A DNA stretch of 64,000 nt from Patescibacteria group bacterium (GTDB lineage: Bacteria; Patescibacteriota; Minisyncoccia; Phycocordibacterales; UBA9973): NCBI GenBank assembly GCA_040384805.1, contig JAZKIP010000008.1, positions 100,749-164,748 of the forward strand. The letters run 5' to 3'. The first letter of the stretch is position 1. Every line of letters starts with the position of its first letter. The position numbers and the translations under genes were made by a program. Below, piece after piece: positions 3,268 to 47,062 of this stretch. The notes beneath the pieces were generated by a model. The model was not told the DNA's origin. It saw nothing but the letters and a program-made list of their open reading frames with translations, and made no database searches.

Positions 3268-4128
3268 CTATTTGGTGAACATAATAGAGCCTGAATCCAT
3301 TGGAAGAAGGAGGACTAAATTGCCGGAAGCATCCACCATATAATGGTTCGCCTGAGCAATTTCGCCTGTGAATACCGATTCCTGTGAGCCCTCGCAGAAC
3401 ATCTTCGTAGATCCGATATTCTCGAACTTTATAACTCCGTCGGTTCCAATCGCATATGATGCGAAGAAGCTATTACAATCCGTCTTTCCTGTCGCCTTGC
3501 CGTCCGCACCGAGCGTGAGCGTAAATGCGCCTGCTTTTTTGGGAGTAATGACCGTATCATTGTTCATGACTGTCTTCTGCCATATCCAAGTTTTCCCCTG
3601 AATTGCCGAAGCGCTTGCTACTGGCGCGCTTCCTGCTGGAAGCTTACCTTGGACAACGGCTGCACTTGTACAATCCGGAGTTGCTTTGAAGACAGCATTG
3701 CTTTCGTATATAACTGTATTGATATCCGTGAAGCGCGTTCCTGTCGCATCAAGATCGCCGTATCCGCGGATAAAGCCTTCGCCTGTTTTCTTAAATATGA
3801 CTTGCATCACAGAGTCCATCCCTTCTGACTGGAATGAATAATCTCCGAGAAGTATGCCATTGCTATATGTACCCGTGTATGTTCCGCTTGAACTGTCCTT
3901 TTCGAAGTTCTTGAAGCGAAGCGTACCTTTGAATGACTGCCCTTCCTGAGAAAGAATGTTGAGCGTATAGACGTCTTTCGCGAGAGTAGCTACGTAGCAT
4001 CCTTGGATTGAATCTTCCTGTGTCACAATCGGCTCGTTTGAGGGAACATCCTTTGTCTTGTAATGAATAACTGCACCTATGATTATTATAATGATTACTG
4101 CAATGATTATTTTTGAACTGTTTGTCAT
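3268..4128 (-). CDS. META domain (HslJ-like) membrane-anchored protein
   Basis: N-terminal TM, and a C-terminal segment with the META-type pattern (LTLGADGKATGKTDCNSFFASY...TKMFC). Confidence 0.55.
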   Translation of the reverse strand: MTNSSKIIIAVIIIIIIGAVIHYKTKDVPSNEPIVTQEDSIQGCYVATLAKDVYTLNILSQEGQSFKGTLRFKNFEKDSSSGTYTGTYSNGILLGDYSFQSEGMDSVMQVIFKKTGEGFIRGYGDLDATGTRFTDINTVIYESNAVFKATPDCTSAAVVQGKLPAGSAPVASASAIQGKTWIWQKTVMNNDTVITPKKAGAFTLTLGADGKATGKTDCNSFFASYAIGTDGVIKFENIGSTKMFCEGSQESVFTGEIAQANHYMVDASGNLVLLLPMDSGSIMFTK

Positions 4129-4175
4129 ACGTACATTATATCACAGCGGCAACATGATGGGCGTAATATGCTCTA

Positions 4176-4649
4176 TTACCCTTCATCTTCATCAAACCTC
4201 TCATGATTAATTCTTGAAGCCTCCAATTCCCTTACATCGCCTGCAACTTCTTCCCATTTGCTATCCATTGGAACAAAGAGCTTTTTCAGAAGTTCTCTGT
4301 TGGAAATATTTACGTAGTATTTGGGTTCGAAAGATTGTTTCTCGCTATTGCTTTCTATTTTCTGTATATCTTCGCCCCATGCGTTCCCTTCAATAAGAAC
4401 TTTAACACGATGGAGGATAGCGGAAGATGACAAAGAAAGAGAACCGAATGAGGAATTATACCCCTCTATCAGTGAGCTTAATTTTGCGTATTTAACTGTT
4501 TGCCCGTTTATATCCTCTTCCACTGACGTTTCCATGTCTTTAAGAGAAGAAAGAAACTCATTGAATTTTTCTTCATACGGGTACCGTTCGAATCCGTCCG
4601 TAGATGCAGGGTCCGGCTTTATAATTCTTTCCCAATTTTCTTTGTACAT
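4176..4649 (-). CDS. hypothetical protein
   Basis: ORF with no recognisable motif. Confidence 0.4.
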   Translation of the reverse strand: MYKENWERIIKPDPASTDGFERYPYEEKFNEFLSSLKDMETSVEEDINGQTVKYAKLSSLIEGYNSSFGSLSLSSSAILHRVKVLIEGNAWGEDIQKIESNSEKQSFEPKYYVNISNRELLKKLFVPMDSKWEEVAGDVRELEASRINHERFDEDEG

Positions 4650-4656
4650 TTTTAAA

Positions 4657-5193
4657 TTATATCATATCTAAGTTCTTCACAACCCTTTCCAGCAAATATG
4701 GAAATTCCTTTGCGTTGAAATGCTTTTCGATATCAATTGTCTGCATTTCCACGCCTAATCCACGGGCAACTTTATCCACATCTTCAAGCGGAACATGAGG
4801 ATCATTCGCGGAAGCAAGAATTTCGAAACGCGGGCAATGTTTCTTTATAGTATCCCAATCAAAATCATCGCTGAAGAAAAAGGATTCTTCCAAGACTTTC
4901 CACCCAAGATCGTGAAGAAAAGGAGCACAGAGATATACCCGTTTGGCATGATGTCCTCGTTCAAGCATCCGCAATATCAATACAGCTCCAAGGCTATGCC
5001 CGATCAATATTGTATCGGGCCCTGTTTTGAAAGACGATACATCTGCAAGCCATGTATTTAAGTCAGGATAATCAGGATTGGACAACTGGGGAACGGTCGT
5101 TTCGACTCCCCTTTTCTCAAGTTCTGCCGCAAGCCATGGGAACCAATTTTCTTGGGGATTCCCTTCTGTACCATGGAAAATATATGCATTCAT
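4657..5193 (-). CDS. alpha/beta hydrolase, RBBP9/YdeN-like serine hydrolase
   Basis: IFHGTEGNPQENWFPWL plus the GHSLGA nucleophile elbow. Confidence 0.65.
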   Translation of the reverse strand: MNAYIFHGTEGNPQENWFPWLAAELEKRGVETTVPQLSNPDYPDLNTWLADVSSFKTGPDTILIGHSLGAVLILRMLERGHHAKRVYLCAPFLHDLGWKVLEESFFFSDDFDWDTIKKHCPRFEILASANDPHVPLEDVDKVARGLGVEMQTIDIEKHFNAKEFPYLLERVVKNLDMI

Positions 5194-32993: not shown

Positions 32994-33013
32994 TTCGAGT
33001 CCCTGACCGGCAG
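32994..33013 (+). repeat. 20-nt exact copy of the tRNA-Gln 3' end (TTCGAGTCCCTGACCGGCAG), inverted relative to the tRNA gene at 46992..47062
   Basis: Direct sequence identity. Confidence 0.7.
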
Positions 33014-36680: not shown

Positions 36681-37328
36681 CTAGGTTTTCGACATATTAC
36701 TAGCGTATGGACCACCAAGGAATTTCTGCAATTCCAAAAGTTCTATTTGCAAGGCGCCTAAATCAAGATCACGCTCTGCATATGTATAAATTTTCGTCAT
36801 TGGATCATAATTACGCAGATGCAAAGCATTGGTACCTCCTTTTTCATTTTTATCACCGATAGTGAGATCACTCACAACACGACGGTCAGCATCACTGTTT
36901 TTGTGTTTCGGATATTCTTCATTTATCCATTTCACCATTCTTTGGTCGTAATGATCAAGATCATTTCTAAAAGACTTATTTTGAAGCAAGACGAACATTG
37001 GTATCTCGATTACATCGGCTAGATCTTTACCTATTTGCATACCAATAGTATCAACAAGATATTGACCTTTCTTGTCTTTAGAAGACCATAGGAGCTTCGA
37101 CACATTTGCACAGTGGGTTAAAAAAGAGTGTATCGAAGAGAATGTCAGAAGAATATTACCTTCGCCTTTCTTACTAATGTTATCGAACGCAGCAAGCGCA
37201 AAGAGAATCTGCATACTGATTTCTCTCTGTGCTTGCATAATAATGTAGTTTTGTAATTCAGTTAATTCTGACACAGTTTTCATATCTGAATTATAGATCT
37301 TCTGATTTCTTTTATCAAAAAGTGACAT
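36681..37328 (-). CDS. hypothetical protein (third gene of a coupled operon)
   Basis: 3-nt gap to the upstream gene. Confidence 0.5.
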   Translation of the reverse strand: MSLFDKRNQKIYNSDMKTVSELTELQNYIIMQAQREISMQILFALAAFDNISKKGEGNILLTFSSIHSFLTHCANVSKLLWSSKDKKGQYLVDTIGMQIGKDLADVIEIPMFVLLQNKSFRNDLDHYDQRMVKWINEEYPKHKNSDADRRVVSDLTIGDKNEKGGTNALHLRNYDPMTKIYTYAERDLDLGALQIELLELQKFLGGPYASNMSKT

Positions 37329-37331
37329 ATC

Positions 37332-38750
37332 CTAAGCCTTACTTGCAGAAGGTTTTTCTCGTCCATCGACAACAATGATCGTTGGATGCTTTTTACCTTC
37401 TTTTTCTTCCTCTTCTTCCATTCTAAGAACTTCTTCAAGAACTTTACTCTTCCCTATGACCTGAACCACCACAAAATAACTTGCTTTTGCTTCTTCACTT
37501 TCTTCGTAAATTCTAGTTTGCTTCTCGTAACCTTGTCGAACATGACCCGATGTGAGCTTTACTTCGACAATAATTTTTTCCTTATGACCAGTGCTTAGTT
37601 TAAAATCAACTGGCCCCTGTCCAGCATTGGATTCTGGAGAAATATCTATATCTGACGATTCGCAATACAGAAGAGCAGTCGCATAGAAAAAGTGTCGTGC
37701 ATGGCTTTCATTAAGAGGCTCCTTTGAATCATTATAAAGGGAACGCCAGCCACCCTTGGTTTCAATAAATTTCTTGAAGGCATTAATAATTTTTTGTACG
37801 ATTTCTTCTAGATCTTCTTTTTTCTTAGGCTTTGTAGGGATTGAAAGAGGATTCGCTTTTACCAATTCCTTAGCTTTTTCCGGCCATAGATAGAGACCTG
37901 CAGGATCGCTCTCAAAATCATACGCTTCAGGATTGCATGCTTGATATGCAGCAACCACGGTACTGATTCTATCTTTTGTCTCAAGAAGATATCGTCGAAT
38001 CTCCGATTTCTTCGGTTTCTTCCCGTCCTTCTGGGTAAAACAGGCTGCAAGAATTGAATTAAATTTCTGCCTTAGCTCATCATTAAAAGCAGCAACAACA
38101 CTGATATCTTCAAAGCTGGTAGCGAGCGGCAAATCCCGAAGAATTCCCTGTGGAAGGAAAATAAGGGGTCCGTCTTTTAAAGGATGTTTCGCAAGGGTGT
38201 AATTATGCTCACAGGTCTTCTGTATAAAAATTTCTTTAATTTTAAGTTCTTTTGTCACTCTTTCAGAGTATGTATATATTCTATGTAGCAGTATACGAAT
38301 GAGCCCATCACTTAAACGGTCAGGTCCGAAATCTTCTTCAAAAAGTCCCATGACCTCAAAGATAGCTGGGTCATTTACACCCATTTTGATAAGTTCTTCA
38401 GCGGTTAACATTAAATGTCTAGCCAACTCAGGACCTATGGCTGAACCGTCGTCTCTTTTATTACCGTAACCTATACCAATTCCACGAACTTCACGGAGAA
38501 TCAATTTTTTATGCGCTGCTTCTCTTGCTTTCTTGTTTTCAGTGCGTAAGAGAGTTATAACACCTGAGAAATAAATCCGTACCTCAGCGAGTGCATCTTT
38601 AAATTCAGGTACCTTAGTCTTAGACAGAAGAAGAGAATCGACGAAAAATAAGCTATCAACCCCAATAACAGGGTTGAATGCTCCAGACTTTGCGTACGCA
38701 GAATCAGATATTCCAAAATATTCACTTGCCCGTTTAAGCTTCTGATTCAT
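37332..38750 (-). CDS. hypothetical protein with C-terminal PD-(D/E)xK nuclease-like motif
   Basis: CESSDID...GPVDFKL...IIVEVKL, i.e. an E...D...ExK arrangement. Confidence 0.5.
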   Translation of the reverse strand: MNQKLKRASEYFGISDSAYAKSGAFNPVIGVDSLFFVDSLLLSKTKVPEFKDALAEVRIYFSGVITLLRTENKKAREAAHKKLILREVRGIGIGYGNKRDDGSAIGPELARHLMLTAEELIKMGVNDPAIFEVMGLFEEDFGPDRLSDGLIRILLHRIYTYSERVTKELKIKEIFIQKTCEHNYTLAKHPLKDGPLIFLPQGILRDLPLATSFEDISVVAAFNDELRQKFNSILAACFTQKDGKKPKKSEIRRYLLETKDRISTVVAAYQACNPEAYDFESDPAGLYLWPEKAKELVKANPLSIPTKPKKKEDLEEIVQKIINAFKKFIETKGGWRSLYNDSKEPLNESHARHFFYATALLYCESSDIDISPESNAGQGPVDFKLSTGHKEKIIVEVKLTSGHVRQGYEKQTRIYEESEEAKASYFVVVQVIGKSKVLEEVLRMEEEEEKEGKKHPTIIVVDGREKPSASKA

Positions 38751-38752
38751 AA

Positions 38753-38998
38753 CTAGTATTTTTTATCAACAGGAGGAGTGGGGTCATTACCGGGAGCAAC
38801 GGTATCTTTGTCTCTTATTGGTCCACCATTTGGCTTGTGTATAACCACTTCTCCACCACCAGAATTAGCTGATAATTCTTTTGCAATTTTTTCTGCTTCT
38901 TTCTGAGTATCAACAAGTACAGAAGCACGATCTGCGCCTTCTTTTAAAACTTTCCATTTATCTGATCCTTTCGGATTTGTTACATGATAATTAGACAT
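38753..38998 (-). CDS. DUF2188 domain protein
   Basis: YHV..P.G..WKV.KEGA.RAS...DT..EA...A.......EVVIHK.NG.IRDKDT...GNDP.PP. Confidence 0.7.
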   Translation of the reverse strand: MSNYHVTNPKGSDKWKVLKEGADRASVLVDTQKEAEKIAKELSANSGGGEVVIHKPNGGPIRDKDTVAPGNDPTPPVDKKY

Positions 38999-39059
38999 AT
39001 TTCCCTTTTATAGATTAATTAATAAAAAATCTAAATTAATTATAAACTCCCGTTAAAAT

Positions 39060-39800
39060 TTATCTATATCTCCGACCCCTTGCCATATAGCATGATATGT
39101 TAGTTAATTTAGATTTCCTTTATCTCCTATTTGCTAACTTAATCATATGGTACGGAAATCAAGAATCGACAAAGGAGGACTTTACTACCGTGTTTATAAC
39201 AAGGCATGTTGGGACAAAACTTTATTTGAGAATGAAGATGATTTCAGGATAGTAAAAGAAAAATTTTCAGAGGCAAAAAGTGCAACGAAAATGAGAATAC
39301 TTGCTTATTGCTTTATGCCAGATCACTTCTATCTTATTCTTTATCCCGTTAATGACGGTGATATGAGAAAGTTTATGCAACTTGCTATTGGCGCGCATAC
39401 GCACTGGTGGCATAGAATGCACAAAACATCTGGATCAGGTCCTATATATAAAGGCAGGTATAAATCTGAGATTATTCCAGAAGACCAGTTGTCTCAACAA
39501 ATAGAGGAAGTAGAAAGTTGCCCTGTAAGGGACAAGTGCGCAGAGACACCTGTGGAATATAAACACTCAAGTGCATCAGCACGCGTTGAGAAAGATTTTA
39601 TGCTGCTTACTAAGTAGCCATGAAGAAAATTTTTCATTTGACTGATTATCCATAACGTAGCATAATTAAACATATTCCCCCACTACACTTTCTAATTTTA
39701 TGATATATTCAGGATAGCCGAACATTTAAATTTTAAAAAAACTGGTTCTCCCGCGTAAAGATTCCTCCTCTATTATAGAGAGGAGGAATATAGACAACGG
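39060..39800 (+). mobile_element. possible IS200-like element with flanking hairpins (extent uncertain)
   Basis: tnpA-like gene, an AT-rich inverted repeat upstream, and a perfect hairpin attcctcctctat-tata-tagagaggaggaat at 39760..39792. Confidence 0.3.
39147..39617 (+). CDS. IS200/IS605-family (Y1 HUH) transposase-like protein / REP-associated tyrosine transposase-like
   Basis: HUH motif AHTHWWH, Tyr in IYKGRYKS, and an ILAYCFMPDHFYLIL core. Confidence 0.6.
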   Translation: MVRKSRIDKGGLYYRVYNKACWDKTLFENEDDFRIVKEKFSEAKSATKMRILAYCFMPDHFYLILYPVNDGDMRKFMQLAIGAHTHWWHRMHKTSGSGPIYKGRYKSEIIPEDQLSQQIEEVESCPVRDKCAETPVEYKHSSASARVEKDFMLLTK

Positions 39801-41252: not shown

Positions 41253-41834
41253 ATGAAAAAAGAAAGAATTCATGAAGCTTTAATTGAACAGCTTAGGAAA
41301 GTGCCGATTTTGCAAGTTGCATGCGAGAAATTAAATGTTTCCAGAAATACGGTCTATACATGGAGGAAACAAGATAAAGAATTTCGTATTGCGATGGATA
41401 AAGCCTTTGCTGAAGGTGATGCGCTTGTTAATGATATGGCTGAAAGTCAGATGATAAGTCTTATGAGAAAAGGAAGCTATCCTGCGAATGCTTTTTGGCT
41501 TCGCGCACGACACCCGAAGTTTAAGAAAGACAATTCCGTTCATATAAAAGTTGCGCCAACAAAAAAATATATTCTTCCTATTACCACCACGGAAGCTTTC
41601 GACAAAGTCAGGCTCAGTAAGCTGCCGAAACAACTCCGTAAGAAAGTCATAAGAAAGGAAATGAAGCTCAGCGATGCTATGGGTGAGGTTTTCGACAAGA
41701 TCCATGAAGAAATGGGGATGGAAATGCCGAAGGATCTTAGAAAAATAAGCTTACCCTTAGGTAGCGTTCTCAAAACAATCTTAGAAGAAGATCAGGATCC
41801 TCATGAAGACGAGAACGGAATCGAAAGATTTTAA
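41253..41834 (+). CDS. HTH domain protein (phage-associated type)
   Basis: ACEKLNVSRNTVYTWRK helix-turn-helix. Confidence 0.4.
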   Translation: MKKERIHEALIEQLRKVPILQVACEKLNVSRNTVYTWRKQDKEFRIAMDKAFAEGDALVNDMAESQMISLMRKGSYPANAFWLRARHPKFKKDNSVHIKVAPTKKYILPITTTEAFDKVRLSKLPKQLRKKVIRKEMKLSDAMGEVFDKIHEEMGMEMPKDLRKISLPLGSVLKTILEEDQDPHEDENGIERF

Positions 41835-42637
41835 AAAGAAATCTTAAACTCTTCCTTAACGAATTCTAAAGTCTTCTGTTGATCCTGAAGCGATGCCTTC
41901 ACAAGCTGCGTGGTGAAGAGGCCTGTCTTGGCTTTCCATTTGGCATCCTTCGCATCAACCGCTTCGATCCATTGGATGCTGATGAGGTAATCGCAGTTGT
42001 CATTGTCGCTGTTTCGGAAGAGACCAGTCGATTTCAGAGGGAGATCCCGGAGAGATTTCCCGTTGTATCGGAATTCTTCAACCGGGACAGCCTTCCCTGT
42101 CACCCTTCCAACGCCGACATACCCGTGATTCTTGAGATATGCCACAACGATATCGTCCTTGTTAAGCGTCCTGATCTGATCGCTCCACTTCTTGTCCTGT
42201 CCTGCGGCCAGGAAGCCGTATCTCTTGCAGTCTTCCCAGAGACGGTTAGATGTGCGGTCTTGGCCGACATTGACGTAGTAGATGTCGTTTTTAAAGTCAA
42301 AGCCCGGGAGATCGTCGCGATAGAGGCTGTAGTGAGGCCTGAACTTCTTGGCGAAGTGGCCCGAGGATTTGTTGGTCAGAGTCCTGCCGAGTTTCCAGAT
42401 GAGGGTTTTCTCGATGAGGAAAGCTTCCCTCTCCGTGAGGTCTTTGGCGATAACCCGAATGATGGGCTGAAGTCCGAGTTTCTGGATGGCTTTGATCCGT
42501 TGCGACTTCTCCGAATCGCTGTCGTCTTTGAGATGAGCGTTCTTGCGATTGCCCTTCCCTTTGCCGTAGTAGAAATCCTCGAAGTTGCGGGGATCTATAT
42601 AGACGTAGACGTAATAGTCTTCATTCACGTTCTTCAT
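41831..42637 (-). CDS. GIY-YIG nuclease with a C-terminal domain of unassigned fold
   Basis: YYVYVYIDPRN...FYYGKGKGNRKNAH...E GIY-YIG core. The C-terminal ~140 aa (DDIVVAYLKNHGYVGVGRV) could not be assigned to any domain family by eye. The gene is GC-rich. Confidence 0.65.
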   Translation of the reverse strand: MKNVNEDYYVYVYIDPRNFEDFYYGKGKGNRKNAHLKDDSDSEKSQRIKAIQKLGLQPIIRVIAKDLTEREAFLIEKTLIWKLGRTLTNKSSGHFAKKFRPHYSLYRDDLPGFDFKNDIYYVNVGQDRTSNRLWEDCKRYGFLAAGQDKKWSDQIRTLNKDDIVVAYLKNHGYVGVGRVTGKAVPVEEFRYNGKSLRDLPLKSTGLFRNSDNDNCDYLISIQWIEAVDAKDAKWKAKTGLFTTQLVKASLQDQQKTLEFVKEEFKISF

Positions 42638-42644
42638 ACATCAT

Positions 42645-42926
42645 CTATGAATTTGAAGAAGGATCTTTCTTTGCGCCGTAATAATGGAAGCACAGGAGTA
42701 TCACTCCGAGGAAAGCGGCTCCGAATCCGAGATTGATTCCGTTTTGTCGGTCGCTCATAAGGCCGAGGTTGTTCACTCGTCCGCTTCCGATTATCTCCCC
42801 CATGAACTCCCGCTGAGGAACGGCAACCGAGGTGTCGAAGAAGAGTAGGAAATAGATACCTGTTGCTAATCCAAACAGAAGAAGAACAATACCTGTTCCC
42901 CACAAAAACGTAACGTCTTTATTCAT
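42645..42926 (-). CDS. small membrane protein
   Basis: Two TM helices. Confidence 0.4.
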   Translation of the reverse strand: MNKDVTFLWGTGIVLLLFGLATGIYFLLFFDTSVAVPQREFMGEIIGSGRVNNLGLMSDRQNGINLGFGAAFLGVILLCFHYYGAKKDPSSNS

Positions 42927-43253: not shown

Positions 43254-44573
43254 ATGGAAACACAATATATAAATAATCTTGGTGTTAAAACCGAAGTACC
43301 ACGCATAAAGGTTAAGTACGTTCTGTATGCTCGTAAATCAACAGAATCGGATGAGAAGCAAGCTCTATCAATTGAATCGCAAGTAAAAGAGATGCTCACT
43401 ATCGCCGATCGTGACAGTCTTGAAATTGTAGACATTAGGAGAGAATCACACTCGGCCAAAGAGTCTGGACAGAGACCAGTATTTAAAGAATTACTTGATG
43501 ATGTTCGTAGAGGTAGATATACAGGAATACTTACATGGGCACCTGATAGATTGAGCAGAAATGCAGGTGACCTCGGATCTGTCGTGGACCTTATGGATGA
43601 GAATAAGTTAATAGAGATTAGAACATACGGGCAACACTTTAAGAATTCACCCAATGAGAAATTCCTTTTAATGATTCTTTGTAGTCAAGCAAAACTTGAG
43701 AATGATAATAAAAGTATCAATGTGAAGCGAGGACTACGAACAAGATGTGAAATGGGATTAAGACCCGGCCCTGCTCTTTTCGGATATTTTAATGTAAAAC
43801 ATGCAGACAAGAAATGTCAGGTAATTCTTGATCCTGAACGAGCACATATCGCTAAGAAAATGTTTGAGAAAGTAGCCTACGAGAAATGGAGCGGTCGAAA
43901 GATATATCACTGGCTAAAATTTGATCTCAATTTAAAGACAAGGAACGGAAACAAAGGTTTAACTCTAGGAAATATTTATCTTATTCTCCAGAGTCCTTTC
44001 TATTACGGAGTCTTCGAGTATCCCCACAAAAGCGGAAACTTCTATAAAGGTAGACATGAACCTCTAATTACTAAGGAGTTATTTGACCAAGTACAACTAC
44101 AAGTTAAAAGCCAAGTTATTCGATCTGAAAGTAAAGAATTCGCCTTCACTAAATTAATGATATGTGGTCTATGCGATTCTGGTATATGTGCAGATGAGAA
44201 GTTTAAAAAACTTAAGAACGGAGGTGTAAATCGATATGTTTACTATGGATGTACTAAATCGAAAGATAAGAATTGTAAAGGAGGTTATATTGAAGAAAAA
44301 GAACTTATTAAACAATTTGAAGATTTGATTGAGATTATCAGTATTGATGAGATTGGAATAAAAGAAAGGATTAGAACCGAAGTTGAGAGAATAAAAAAAT
44401 TTAATAGTATGCTACTGGGAGTAAAAGATCAAGTCTGCGTAGAAGATATCGACATTAAAAACTACGCAAAGTATTTACTTCGAGAAGGAAAGGATATTGA
44501 AAAACGAGAATTATTGTCTTGCTTTAAAAGTAAGATAGAATTAAAAAATAAAGCTATTATTCTTATAAATTAG
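43254..44573 (+). CDS. large serine recombinase
   Basis: Resolvase catalytic region YARKSTESDEKQ, a recombinase domain, and a Cys-rich zinc ribbon. Confidence 0.9.
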   Translation: METQYINNLGVKTEVPRIKVKYVLYARKSTESDEKQALSIESQVKEMLTIADRDSLEIVDIRRESHSAKESGQRPVFKELLDDVRRGRYTGILTWAPDRLSRNAGDLGSVVDLMDENKLIEIRTYGQHFKNSPNEKFLLMILCSQAKLENDNKSINVKRGLRTRCEMGLRPGPALFGYFNVKHADKKCQVILDPERAHIAKKMFEKVAYEKWSGRKIYHWLKFDLNLKTRNGNKGLTLGNIYLILQSPFYYGVFEYPHKSGNFYKGRHEPLITKELFDQVQLQVKSQVIRSESKEFAFTKLMICGLCDSGICADEKFKKLKNGGVNRYVYYGCTKSKDKNCKGGYIEEKELIKQFEDLIEIISIDEIGIKERIRTEVERIKKFNSMLLGVKDQVCVEDIDIKNYAKYLLREGKDIEKRELLSCFKSKIELKNKAIILIN

Positions 44574-46913: not shown

Positions 46914-46991
46914 AATTTCTATATTATACCACAGAACTAAAGCTAGTTTCTAAACGACGTATCTCGAGCGCGATAACTGCGCTCTTGTTTG

Positions 46992-47062
46992 CTGCCGGTC
47001 AGGGACTCGAACCCCAATACCATCCTCCAGAGGGATGTGTCCTACCATTAGACGAACCGGCA
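46992..47062 (-). tRNA. tRNA-Gln (anticodon CTG)
   Basis: Manual cloverleaf: acceptor TGCCGGT/ACCGGCA with U1-A72 and G73, D arm GTCT/GGAC, anticodon loop CTCTGGA, and T loop TTCGAGT. Confidence 0.85.

Follow-up and report, generated by a model that had tools for sequence, protein, structure and literature searches.

Candidates are among the described systems that come closest to the locus analyzed here. The PDC set consists of 145 candidate systems that were discovered inside BREX, DISARM and Type I restriction-modification (R-M) loci, the underlying principle being guilt-by-embedding (bioRxiv 10.1101/2024.01.29.577857), and one of them, PDC-M36, is a three-gene cassette with the arrangement FAM_01399>>FAM_00303>>FAM_00303. 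DUF2188 proteins have been reported in putative defence operons under CapH/CapP regulation and, as a putative effector, in a Thoeris-rich island, and they have been proposed as a minimal antitoxin module like the N-terminal domain of HicB (PMC13621843). The roles thus assigned to the family are proposals. HEPN proteins form a four-helix up-down bundle in which inserts frequently separate helices 2 and 3; their Rx4-6H motif ends helix 3 and extends into the linker before helix 4, a non-helical distortion being common, the arginine is followed by a polar N, D or H, and a second acidic residue is typically present as Ex3[KR] in helix 2 (PMC3710099). A DUF2188 protein, a PD-(D/E)xK nuclease and a probable HEPN protein are encoded next to each other in the DNA studied here, a 64,000-nt stretch (the window, to which all coordinates refer) from a Patescibacteria metagenome-assembled genome (MAG). 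Patescibacterial genomes are tiny, and knowledge of immunity in these bacteria is scarce. The first, second and third gene of the trio, designated g1, g2 and g3, had been taken for one conserved module in an initial annotation. Comparison with related loci led us to a different reading, which we hold with moderate confidence: rather than a conserved three-gene system, the locus appears to be a mosaic in which three defence-island-type genes, each mobile on its own, lie side by side.

According to the listing of open reading frames (ORFs) in the window, g1 (38998-38753, 81 aa), g2 (38750-37332, 472 aa) and g3 (37328-36681, 215 aa for the longest ORF) follow each other in the same orientation on the minus strand, just as the initial annotation had it when describing three closely packed genes. 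They reside on a contig of 209,578 bp (locus tags V4665_03230 and V4665_03225). A caution is in place here, because close gene packing in one genome does not make a system. In the comparison of neighbourhoods, ORFs were called in every fetched locus; g2 and g3 homologues were then sought with hidden Markov models, and relatives of g1 with jackhmmer. The sample comprised the 80 top-ranking of at least 578 matches in genomes, together with metagenome fragments; alignment A1 was used to seed a locus search. A g3 homologue next to g2 was found at none of the 114 other g2 loci, such that the window stands alone among 115, and a g2 homologue was adjacent to g3 at none of about 78 other g3-family loci. 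The trio was thus absent outside this genome in the sample, and the notion of one conserved module could not be upheld.

The genes that do accompany g2 and g3 vary. At the locus of the closest g2 relative (86% identity) the order is Peptidase_S24, DUF2188, g2 and a gene for a 131-aa membrane protein, which takes the place of g3. The g2 relatives with 79%, 77% and 75% identity all occur without DUF2188: the first is preceded by a DEAD/ResIII helicase gene and a gene for a 370-aa protein, the second is solitary, and the third follows a gene for a HATPase_c_3 protein with a gap of 1 nt. After clustering, 70 of the 90 distinct neighbours of g2 homologues were singletons, and no close neighbour on the same strand was present at 23 of the 115 g2 loci. 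Annotated neighbours comprise integrases (5), ResIII/Type III (3), DUF2188 (3), Shedu (2), PIN (2) and GpA terminase (2) as well as Type I S and M subunits, Eco57I-type enzymes (Type IIG), DarT and DUF5677. On plasmids, g2 homologues have as neighbours an integrase and RelE/ParE modules, or SIR2, DUF3427, GIY-YIG and AAA ATPase genes. The closest g3 relatives (72% identity) are preceded by unrelated small genes, and others are located after RNase H or between genes for proteins of 162 and 1611 aa. Defence-type neighbours of g3 homologues include RhuM, PDDEXK_11, PIN-TPR-GreABC, Dam, MutH, HEPN_Swt1 and HARE-HTH. In loci L007-L009 (e.g., L007 2858-5585), genes for a 424-aa unknown protein, a Dam-type (MethyltransfD12) methylase and a g3 homologue (59% identity) are separated by 5-nt gaps; this operon resembles an R-M system with a putative RNase appended.

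In the initial annotation, gaps of 2 and 3 nt between the three genes had been given, of which only the former holds for the genes as they are probably translated. The g1/g2 junction reads TAG-tt-ATG (gap of 2 nt). Given this short gap and the lack of a Shine-Dalgarno sequence preceding the g2 start, g1 and g2 are translationally coupled at this locus; an AAGGGA ribosome-binding site is situated upstream of g1. At the g2/g3 junction, TAG-gat-ATG, the 3-nt gap exists for the longest g3 ORF only. Translation of g3 probably starts at M16 (ATG at 37283), 48 nt past g2, because all 14 homologues align from this residue onwards and the NCBI record also lists a 200-aa protein (37283-36681, minus strand). 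A near-consensus, sigma-70-type promoter-like site (37290..37318, minus strand; TTGATA-17-TATAAT, 11 of 12 matches) lies between the g2 stop codon and M16, and g3 probably has a promoter of its own. As the -10 box ends 6 nt ahead of the M16 ATG, the g3 mRNA would be leaderless. A further promoter-like site upstream of g1 (39039..39066, minus strand; TAGATA-16-TATAAT, 10 of 12 matches) was picked up by consensus scan alone. Inside the three-gene stretch, neither a structured RNA nor a tandem array was found.

Three genes on the same strand, the first two 2 nt apart and the last two no more than 48 nt apart, all of them of the defence-island type, are also what a genuine but lineage-restricted three-component defence system would look like, in which the co-transcribed genes would provide, for example, a nuclease and an RNase as dual effectors gated by the DUF2188 protein. 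HEPN domains are in fact often coupled to R-M-type nucleases (PMC3710099), and on metagenome contig Ga0247841_10001951 (L151) a g2 homologue directly precedes a gene for another protein with a C-terminal RNxxxH. Nevertheless, such a system is very unlikely, since none of about 190 related loci yielded the trio, since the third gene differs beside the 86% identical g2 and the 72% identical g3 homologues follow unrelated genes, and since g3 starts 48 nt downstream and is preceded by a promoter-like site of its own.

Contig L151 is also the nearest case to co-occurrence of g2 and g3, the homologues of which share a strand there at a distance of 2.5 kb and are separated by two unrelated genes. The first of these encodes a 420-aa protein (3482-4744, plus strand), begins 49 nt downstream of the g2 homologue and specifies the C-terminal sequence KIRNGIIHGN, an RNx3H motif. 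A gene for a TIR/deoxyribosyltransferase-like protein of 271 aa follows and then, on the same strand, the g3-family gene. As judged by hhalign, the 420-aa protein is unrelated to the g3 family. An arrangement of nuclease and putative HEPN protein therefore recurs next to this g2 homologue with a non-homologous partner.

In contrast to the trio, the combination of g1 and g2 was encountered elsewhere. The identification of g1 as a DUF2188 protein had been correct: it matches PF09954 over profile positions 1-62 of 62 with 73.5 bits, far above the cut-off of 22 (E-value 1.5e-20). It is also matched by the PADLOC model for the single-gene candidate PDC-S16 (E-value 4.7e-19) and by phrog_3220 (E-value 1e-16). 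A sequence-profile search of the PDB returned no solved relative of g1, and a literature search on PDC-S16 returned no paper. Of the 115 g2 loci, only 4 have DUF2188 immediately in front of g2; the pair was found in the window, in the Patescibacteria-like loci L116/L117, in a Pseudomonadales MAG (L025) and in an Eggerthellaceae MAG (L068). Wherever DUF2188 was found in a g2 neighbourhood, it occupied position -1 on the same strand. Window and L116 share 86% identity for g2 and 35% for DUF2188, while the values for window and L025 are 39% and 56%, respectively. Such discordant divergences, as read from the sequences, suggest that g2 and DUF2188 were paired repeatedly and independently or that partners were replaced. 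The findings argue for a functional link that is real but facultative, the latter because about 96% of the g2 genes occur without DUF2188. Papers found by literature search did not report a pairing of DUF2188 with a DUF8370/DUF8371 nuclease, the type of protein encoded by g2.

A larger enzyme gene whose translation is coupled to that of a small gene upstream is reminiscent of toxin-antitoxin loci. In principle, g1 and g2 could constitute an addiction module stabilizing the island, with the nuclease as toxin and the DUF2188 protein as HicB-N-like antitoxin, while g3 would be a second, solitary toxin. This would agree with the proposal of DUF2188 as a minimal HicB-like antitoxin (PMC13621843) and with the positions of g2 homologues, some of which neighbour integrases or reside among the RelE/ParE modules of conjugative plasmids. 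On the other hand, a type II toxin is consistently accompanied by its antitoxin, and this is not what we observe for g2 with DUF2188 in front of it in so few loci. Many g2 homologues have no adjacent partner at all, and a toxin free of its antitoxin would not be tolerated. DUF2188 also stands alone as the single-gene candidate PDC-S16, and although the family has been proposed to be HicB-N-like, a HicA-like toxin is not present at this locus. We thus consider an addiction module unlikely.

The larger protein of the pair, g2, consists of two domains. The claim that it has a restriction-endonuclease-like motif at its C-terminus proved justified, as both the catalytic residues and the core fold are present: conserved E, D and (D/E)xK residues are arranged on an alpha-beta-beta-beta-alpha-beta core (37332..37745, minus strand, including the tail described below and the stop codon). 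By motif and fold, g2 belongs to the PD-(D/E)xK nuclease superfamily, and its activity is predicted. The nuclease domain carries a RecB/Cas4-like QxxxY motif. Such motifs are typical of RecB/Cas4/lambda-Exo-type processing nucleases. The N-terminal domain (37746..38750, minus strand; aa 1 to ~335) contains the motifs GIGYG..DDGSA and EEDFGPDRLSD, and within its ~330 aa the residues E87, G94, G102, G142, D144, D148, P200 and R227 are invariant. Neither fold nor profile searches matched this domain to a solved structure or PDB sequence. While g2 itself had no match in our local copy of Pfam, each of its homologues carries the precomputed annotations PF28123 (DUF8370) and PF28130 (DUF8371). Homologues that are fragments show that DUF8370 corresponds to the N-terminal domain and DUF8371 to the C-terminal half, which includes the nuclease domain. 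The nuclease domain is followed by a KPSASK tail (37335-37352, minus strand) that is conserved in nearly all g2 homologues, which is unusual for a C-terminus; D462, A469 and S470 are each conserved in at least 90% (alignment A2, where the tail occupies columns 540-548).

The g2 family has at least 578 matches in species-representative genomes of the GTDB and ranges from Patescibacteria to Acidobacteriota, Pseudomonadota, Bacillota and Cyanobacteria; 14 matches lie on plasmids. The initial annotation had recommended a PADLOC scan, and its outcome is that g1 matches PDC-S16 and that g2 is related to PDC-M36A, both of them candidates. PDC-M36A models were matched by 35 of 38 members of the g2 family (best E-value 1e-31), and the window protein matched over aa 7-215 only (E-value 9.7e-7). 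From these matches, PDC-M36A appears to be a family related to g2 and not clearly the same one. The resemblance extends to protein length (profile of 457 aa compared with 472 aa for g2) and to the context of defence loci. It ends with the other two genes of the PDC-M36 cassette, which have no counterpart at this locus; g1 matches PDC-S16 alone and g3 matches no PADLOC model. A literature search on PDC-M36 and DUF8370/DUF8371 returned no paper. In its architecture, g2 resembles Shedu and Type IV enzymes, as it unites a presumed N-terminal sensor and a C-terminal PD-(D/E)xK domain in one polypeptide and usually stands alone in defence islands or mobile elements. This likeness is purely architectural, because g2 has no SduA/DUF4263 or Mrr match in Pfam or PADLOC; SduA was seen only as the neighbour of two g2 homologues.

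The QxxxY motif shared with processing nucleases could also point to a role in the service of a mobile element or phage, i.e., in DNA processing, recombination, homing or anti-defence, in which case the defence context would reflect hitch-hiking in variable regions. In line with this, g2 matches phrog_30194 over its full length (E-value 5e-90), homologues occur on 25 IMG/VR contigs, and the phage integrases and large terminase genes mentioned above are among the neighbours. We ascribe a low probability to this explanation. A search of 50,697 deposited phage genomes yielded no match for g2, the homologues are mostly chromosomal and lie beside R-M, Shedu, DarT, SIR2 or PIN genes, and the loci in which the related PDC-M36A lies embedded are of the BREX, DISARM and Type I R-M types.

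For g3, the initial annotation had stated that no recognisable motif was present. This has to be revised, because the protein contains a near-invariant Rx4H motif, R121-N-D-L-D-H126 (36951..36968, minus strand; translation verified). Among the family representatives, R121 is conserved in 150 of 150, N/D122 in 145, E/D125 in 145, H126 in 149 and D128 in 147 sequences, and E36 (144), Q40 (139) and S77 (145) are present in almost all of 149. A word-indexed search retrieved 15 homologues. A profile search of a representative library of 1.84 billion proteins raised the number to 1990 clusters at an E-value of up to 1e-3 and 710 at up to 1e-10 (clusters at 50% identity), the proteins being mostly 165-200 aa long. 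No match for g3 was found in Pfam (E-values up to 10), NCBIfam, PADLOC or PHROGs, none for 60 diverse relatives in Pfam (E-values up to 0.01), NCBIfam or PADLOC, and none for six family members in Pfam at E-values up to 10. A PDB sequence-profile search with the family gave spurious repeat matches only, and tblastn of g3 against plasmid and phage collections gave no match.

The AlphaFold2 model of g3 is confident, with a predicted local distance difference test score of 87. It comprises long helices at positions 24-56 and 62-80, an irregular insert (81-118), a short helix (119-125), a break at H126 and a helix from 127 to 143, and it closes with a three-stranded sheet (169-189) and a helix (190-204). 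This C-terminal module carries a conserved motif of its own, R-x-[YF]-D-P. The Rx4H motif and the polar residue after the arginine are features of HEPN proteins, and the modelled insert after helix 2 and distortion at H126 would fit such proteins as well. On the basis of the near-invariant E...R-[N/D]-x-x-[E/D]-H-x-D signature on a helical bundle, g3 is a putative HEPN-type RNase. It resembles solitary HEPN proteins of the Abi type (PMC3710099) also in having an upstream acidic residue, a size of about 180 aa and a frequent position beside R-M or defence genes, but differs from them in that neither profile nor structure matches rise above background and in the additional C-terminal sheet and helix. 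A DinB-like or His-triad metal site was considered as well and rejected, because H67 (99 of 149) and H72 (92 of 149) are not conserved. A relationship with the DUF5677 protein encoded in the window was not supported by hhalign.

Taken together, the comparative data resolve what looks like an operon into a facultative pair, g1 and g2, and a gene that stands by itself, g3. According to the mosaic reading, g2 would be the core, a self-contained and usually stand-alone nuclease. Its DUF8370 domain would recognise a signal or a target such as a feature of nucleic acids, and DNA would be cut by its C-terminal PD-(D/E)xK domain. In principle, the protein might work like a single-protein restriction enzyme, a Type IV or a Shedu-type nuclease. 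The optional partner g1 may modulate or restrain the nuclease, a role that would suit the likeness proposed between DUF2188 and the N-domain of the HicB antitoxin. As an independent gene, g3 would encode a metal-independent HEPN-type RNase serving as an abortive-infection or toxin-like effector.

Several observations weigh against this reading. Rare trios may have been missed, because the sample consisted of the 80 top-ranking of at least 578 genome matches and of metagenome fragments, and tight spacing and a shared strand could still reflect co-transcription and cooperation of the trio locally. Housekeeping genes occur among the neighbours of g3 homologues. An own promoter and a leaderless mRNA for g3 are suggestive only, because such sites are no commoner than in shuffled sequences (nine promoter-like sites found in the region compared with 8.6 expected). 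No HEPN model in Pfam matched g3, a Foldseek search found nothing, and the acidic residue E36 is placed on helix 1 as E-x3-Q40 and not on helix 2 as E-x3-[KR], helix 2 being devoid of a conserved acidic residue. Furthermore, the data show how the genes are built, which folds and motifs they encode, how they are distributed and that they lack co-occurrence, whereas the activities of all three families and a function in defence are predicted, and PDC-S16 and PDC-M36 are themselves candidates.

The components of the locus are new or uncharacterised members of the PD-(D/E)xK nucleases, of DUF2188 and of probable HEPN proteins. Beyond the mosaic itself, we tentatively put forward two possibilities, namely that g3 represents a large family of stand-alone HEPN-like RNases and that DUF2188 and the DUF8370/DUF8371 nuclease make up a new two-gene immune unit. 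In the former case, the distinctive C-terminal beta-module may belong to an autonomous abortive-infection effector that works without a dedicated antitoxin. In the latter, a HicB-N-like mini-protein may act as the gate of a nuclease in which the sensor domain adopts a fold not seen before. The families of g2, with at least 578 species-level genomes, and of g3, with about 2000 clusters, are widespread, uncharacterised and enzymatic-looking, and both are well-defined targets for phage-defence or toxicity screens because they offer clear catalytic residues for mutagenesis, namely D382, E396 and K398 in g2 and R121 and H126 in g3. The g3 family and the N-terminal domain of g2 are the most worthwhile leads.

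The trio sits on an integrated element of the Patescibacteria genome, and the roughly 10-kb integrated block, which is rich in candidate nucleases, shows how these bacteria acquire such genes. The context of a defence island or mobile element that had been postulated from the beginning is supported by a recombinase, a methyltransferase, GIY-YIG and DUF5677 proteins, a tRNA-Gln at the end of the block and the matches to PADLOC candidates. Next to the g1-g2 unit resides a Y1-transposase/RAYT-like gene (39147-39617, plus strand). It had been referred to as IS200-like; it is indeed Y1 transposase-like but scores better with the model for REP-associated tyrosine transposases (E-value 3.6e-12, under the model cut-off). 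In Edaphobacter aggregans, too, the g2 homologue is closely followed by a Y1 transposase gene (L005 6527-6967), which may be a coincidence. The methyltransferase and the GIY-YIG nuclease mentioned in the initial annotation were both identified. The former is a phage-type protein with ParB_N and N6_N4 methyltransferase domains (phrog_498), and a small-terminase-like helix-turn-helix protein is encoded in the same block. The latter (41831-42637, minus strand, 268 aa) is another candidate defence gene of the island, as its LEM-3-like N-terminus matches PADLOC PD-T4-3 (E-value 1e-12) and its C-terminus the PADLOC candidate PDC-S11 (E-value 2.7e-36).

Further along the block, a full-length LOOT RNA (Rfam RF03000; 42990-43108, minus strand) was detected with 77.9 bits (gathering threshold 46.4; E-value 1.4e-13). 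It is flanked on one side by a small membrane ORF (42645-42926) and on the other by the divergent gene for a large serine recombinase (43254-44573); in a literature search on LOOT only an author's name matched. The block also contains genes for the DUF5677 protein and a 427-aa unknown protein, its G+C content falls to 0.32-0.38 at 43-47 kb, and it ends with tRNA-Gln(CTG) (46991-47062, minus strand). A direct attachment (att) repeat of this tRNA was not found. Its last 20 nt are repeated exactly at 32994-33013 (plus strand) in inverted orientation only, and simple att sites are not definable for this reason. The inverted fragment could stem from an inversion, from a decayed second tRNA or from an assembly artefact. 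The two inverted tRNA-Gln copies bracket about 14 kb, which include the trio and the serine recombinase gene.

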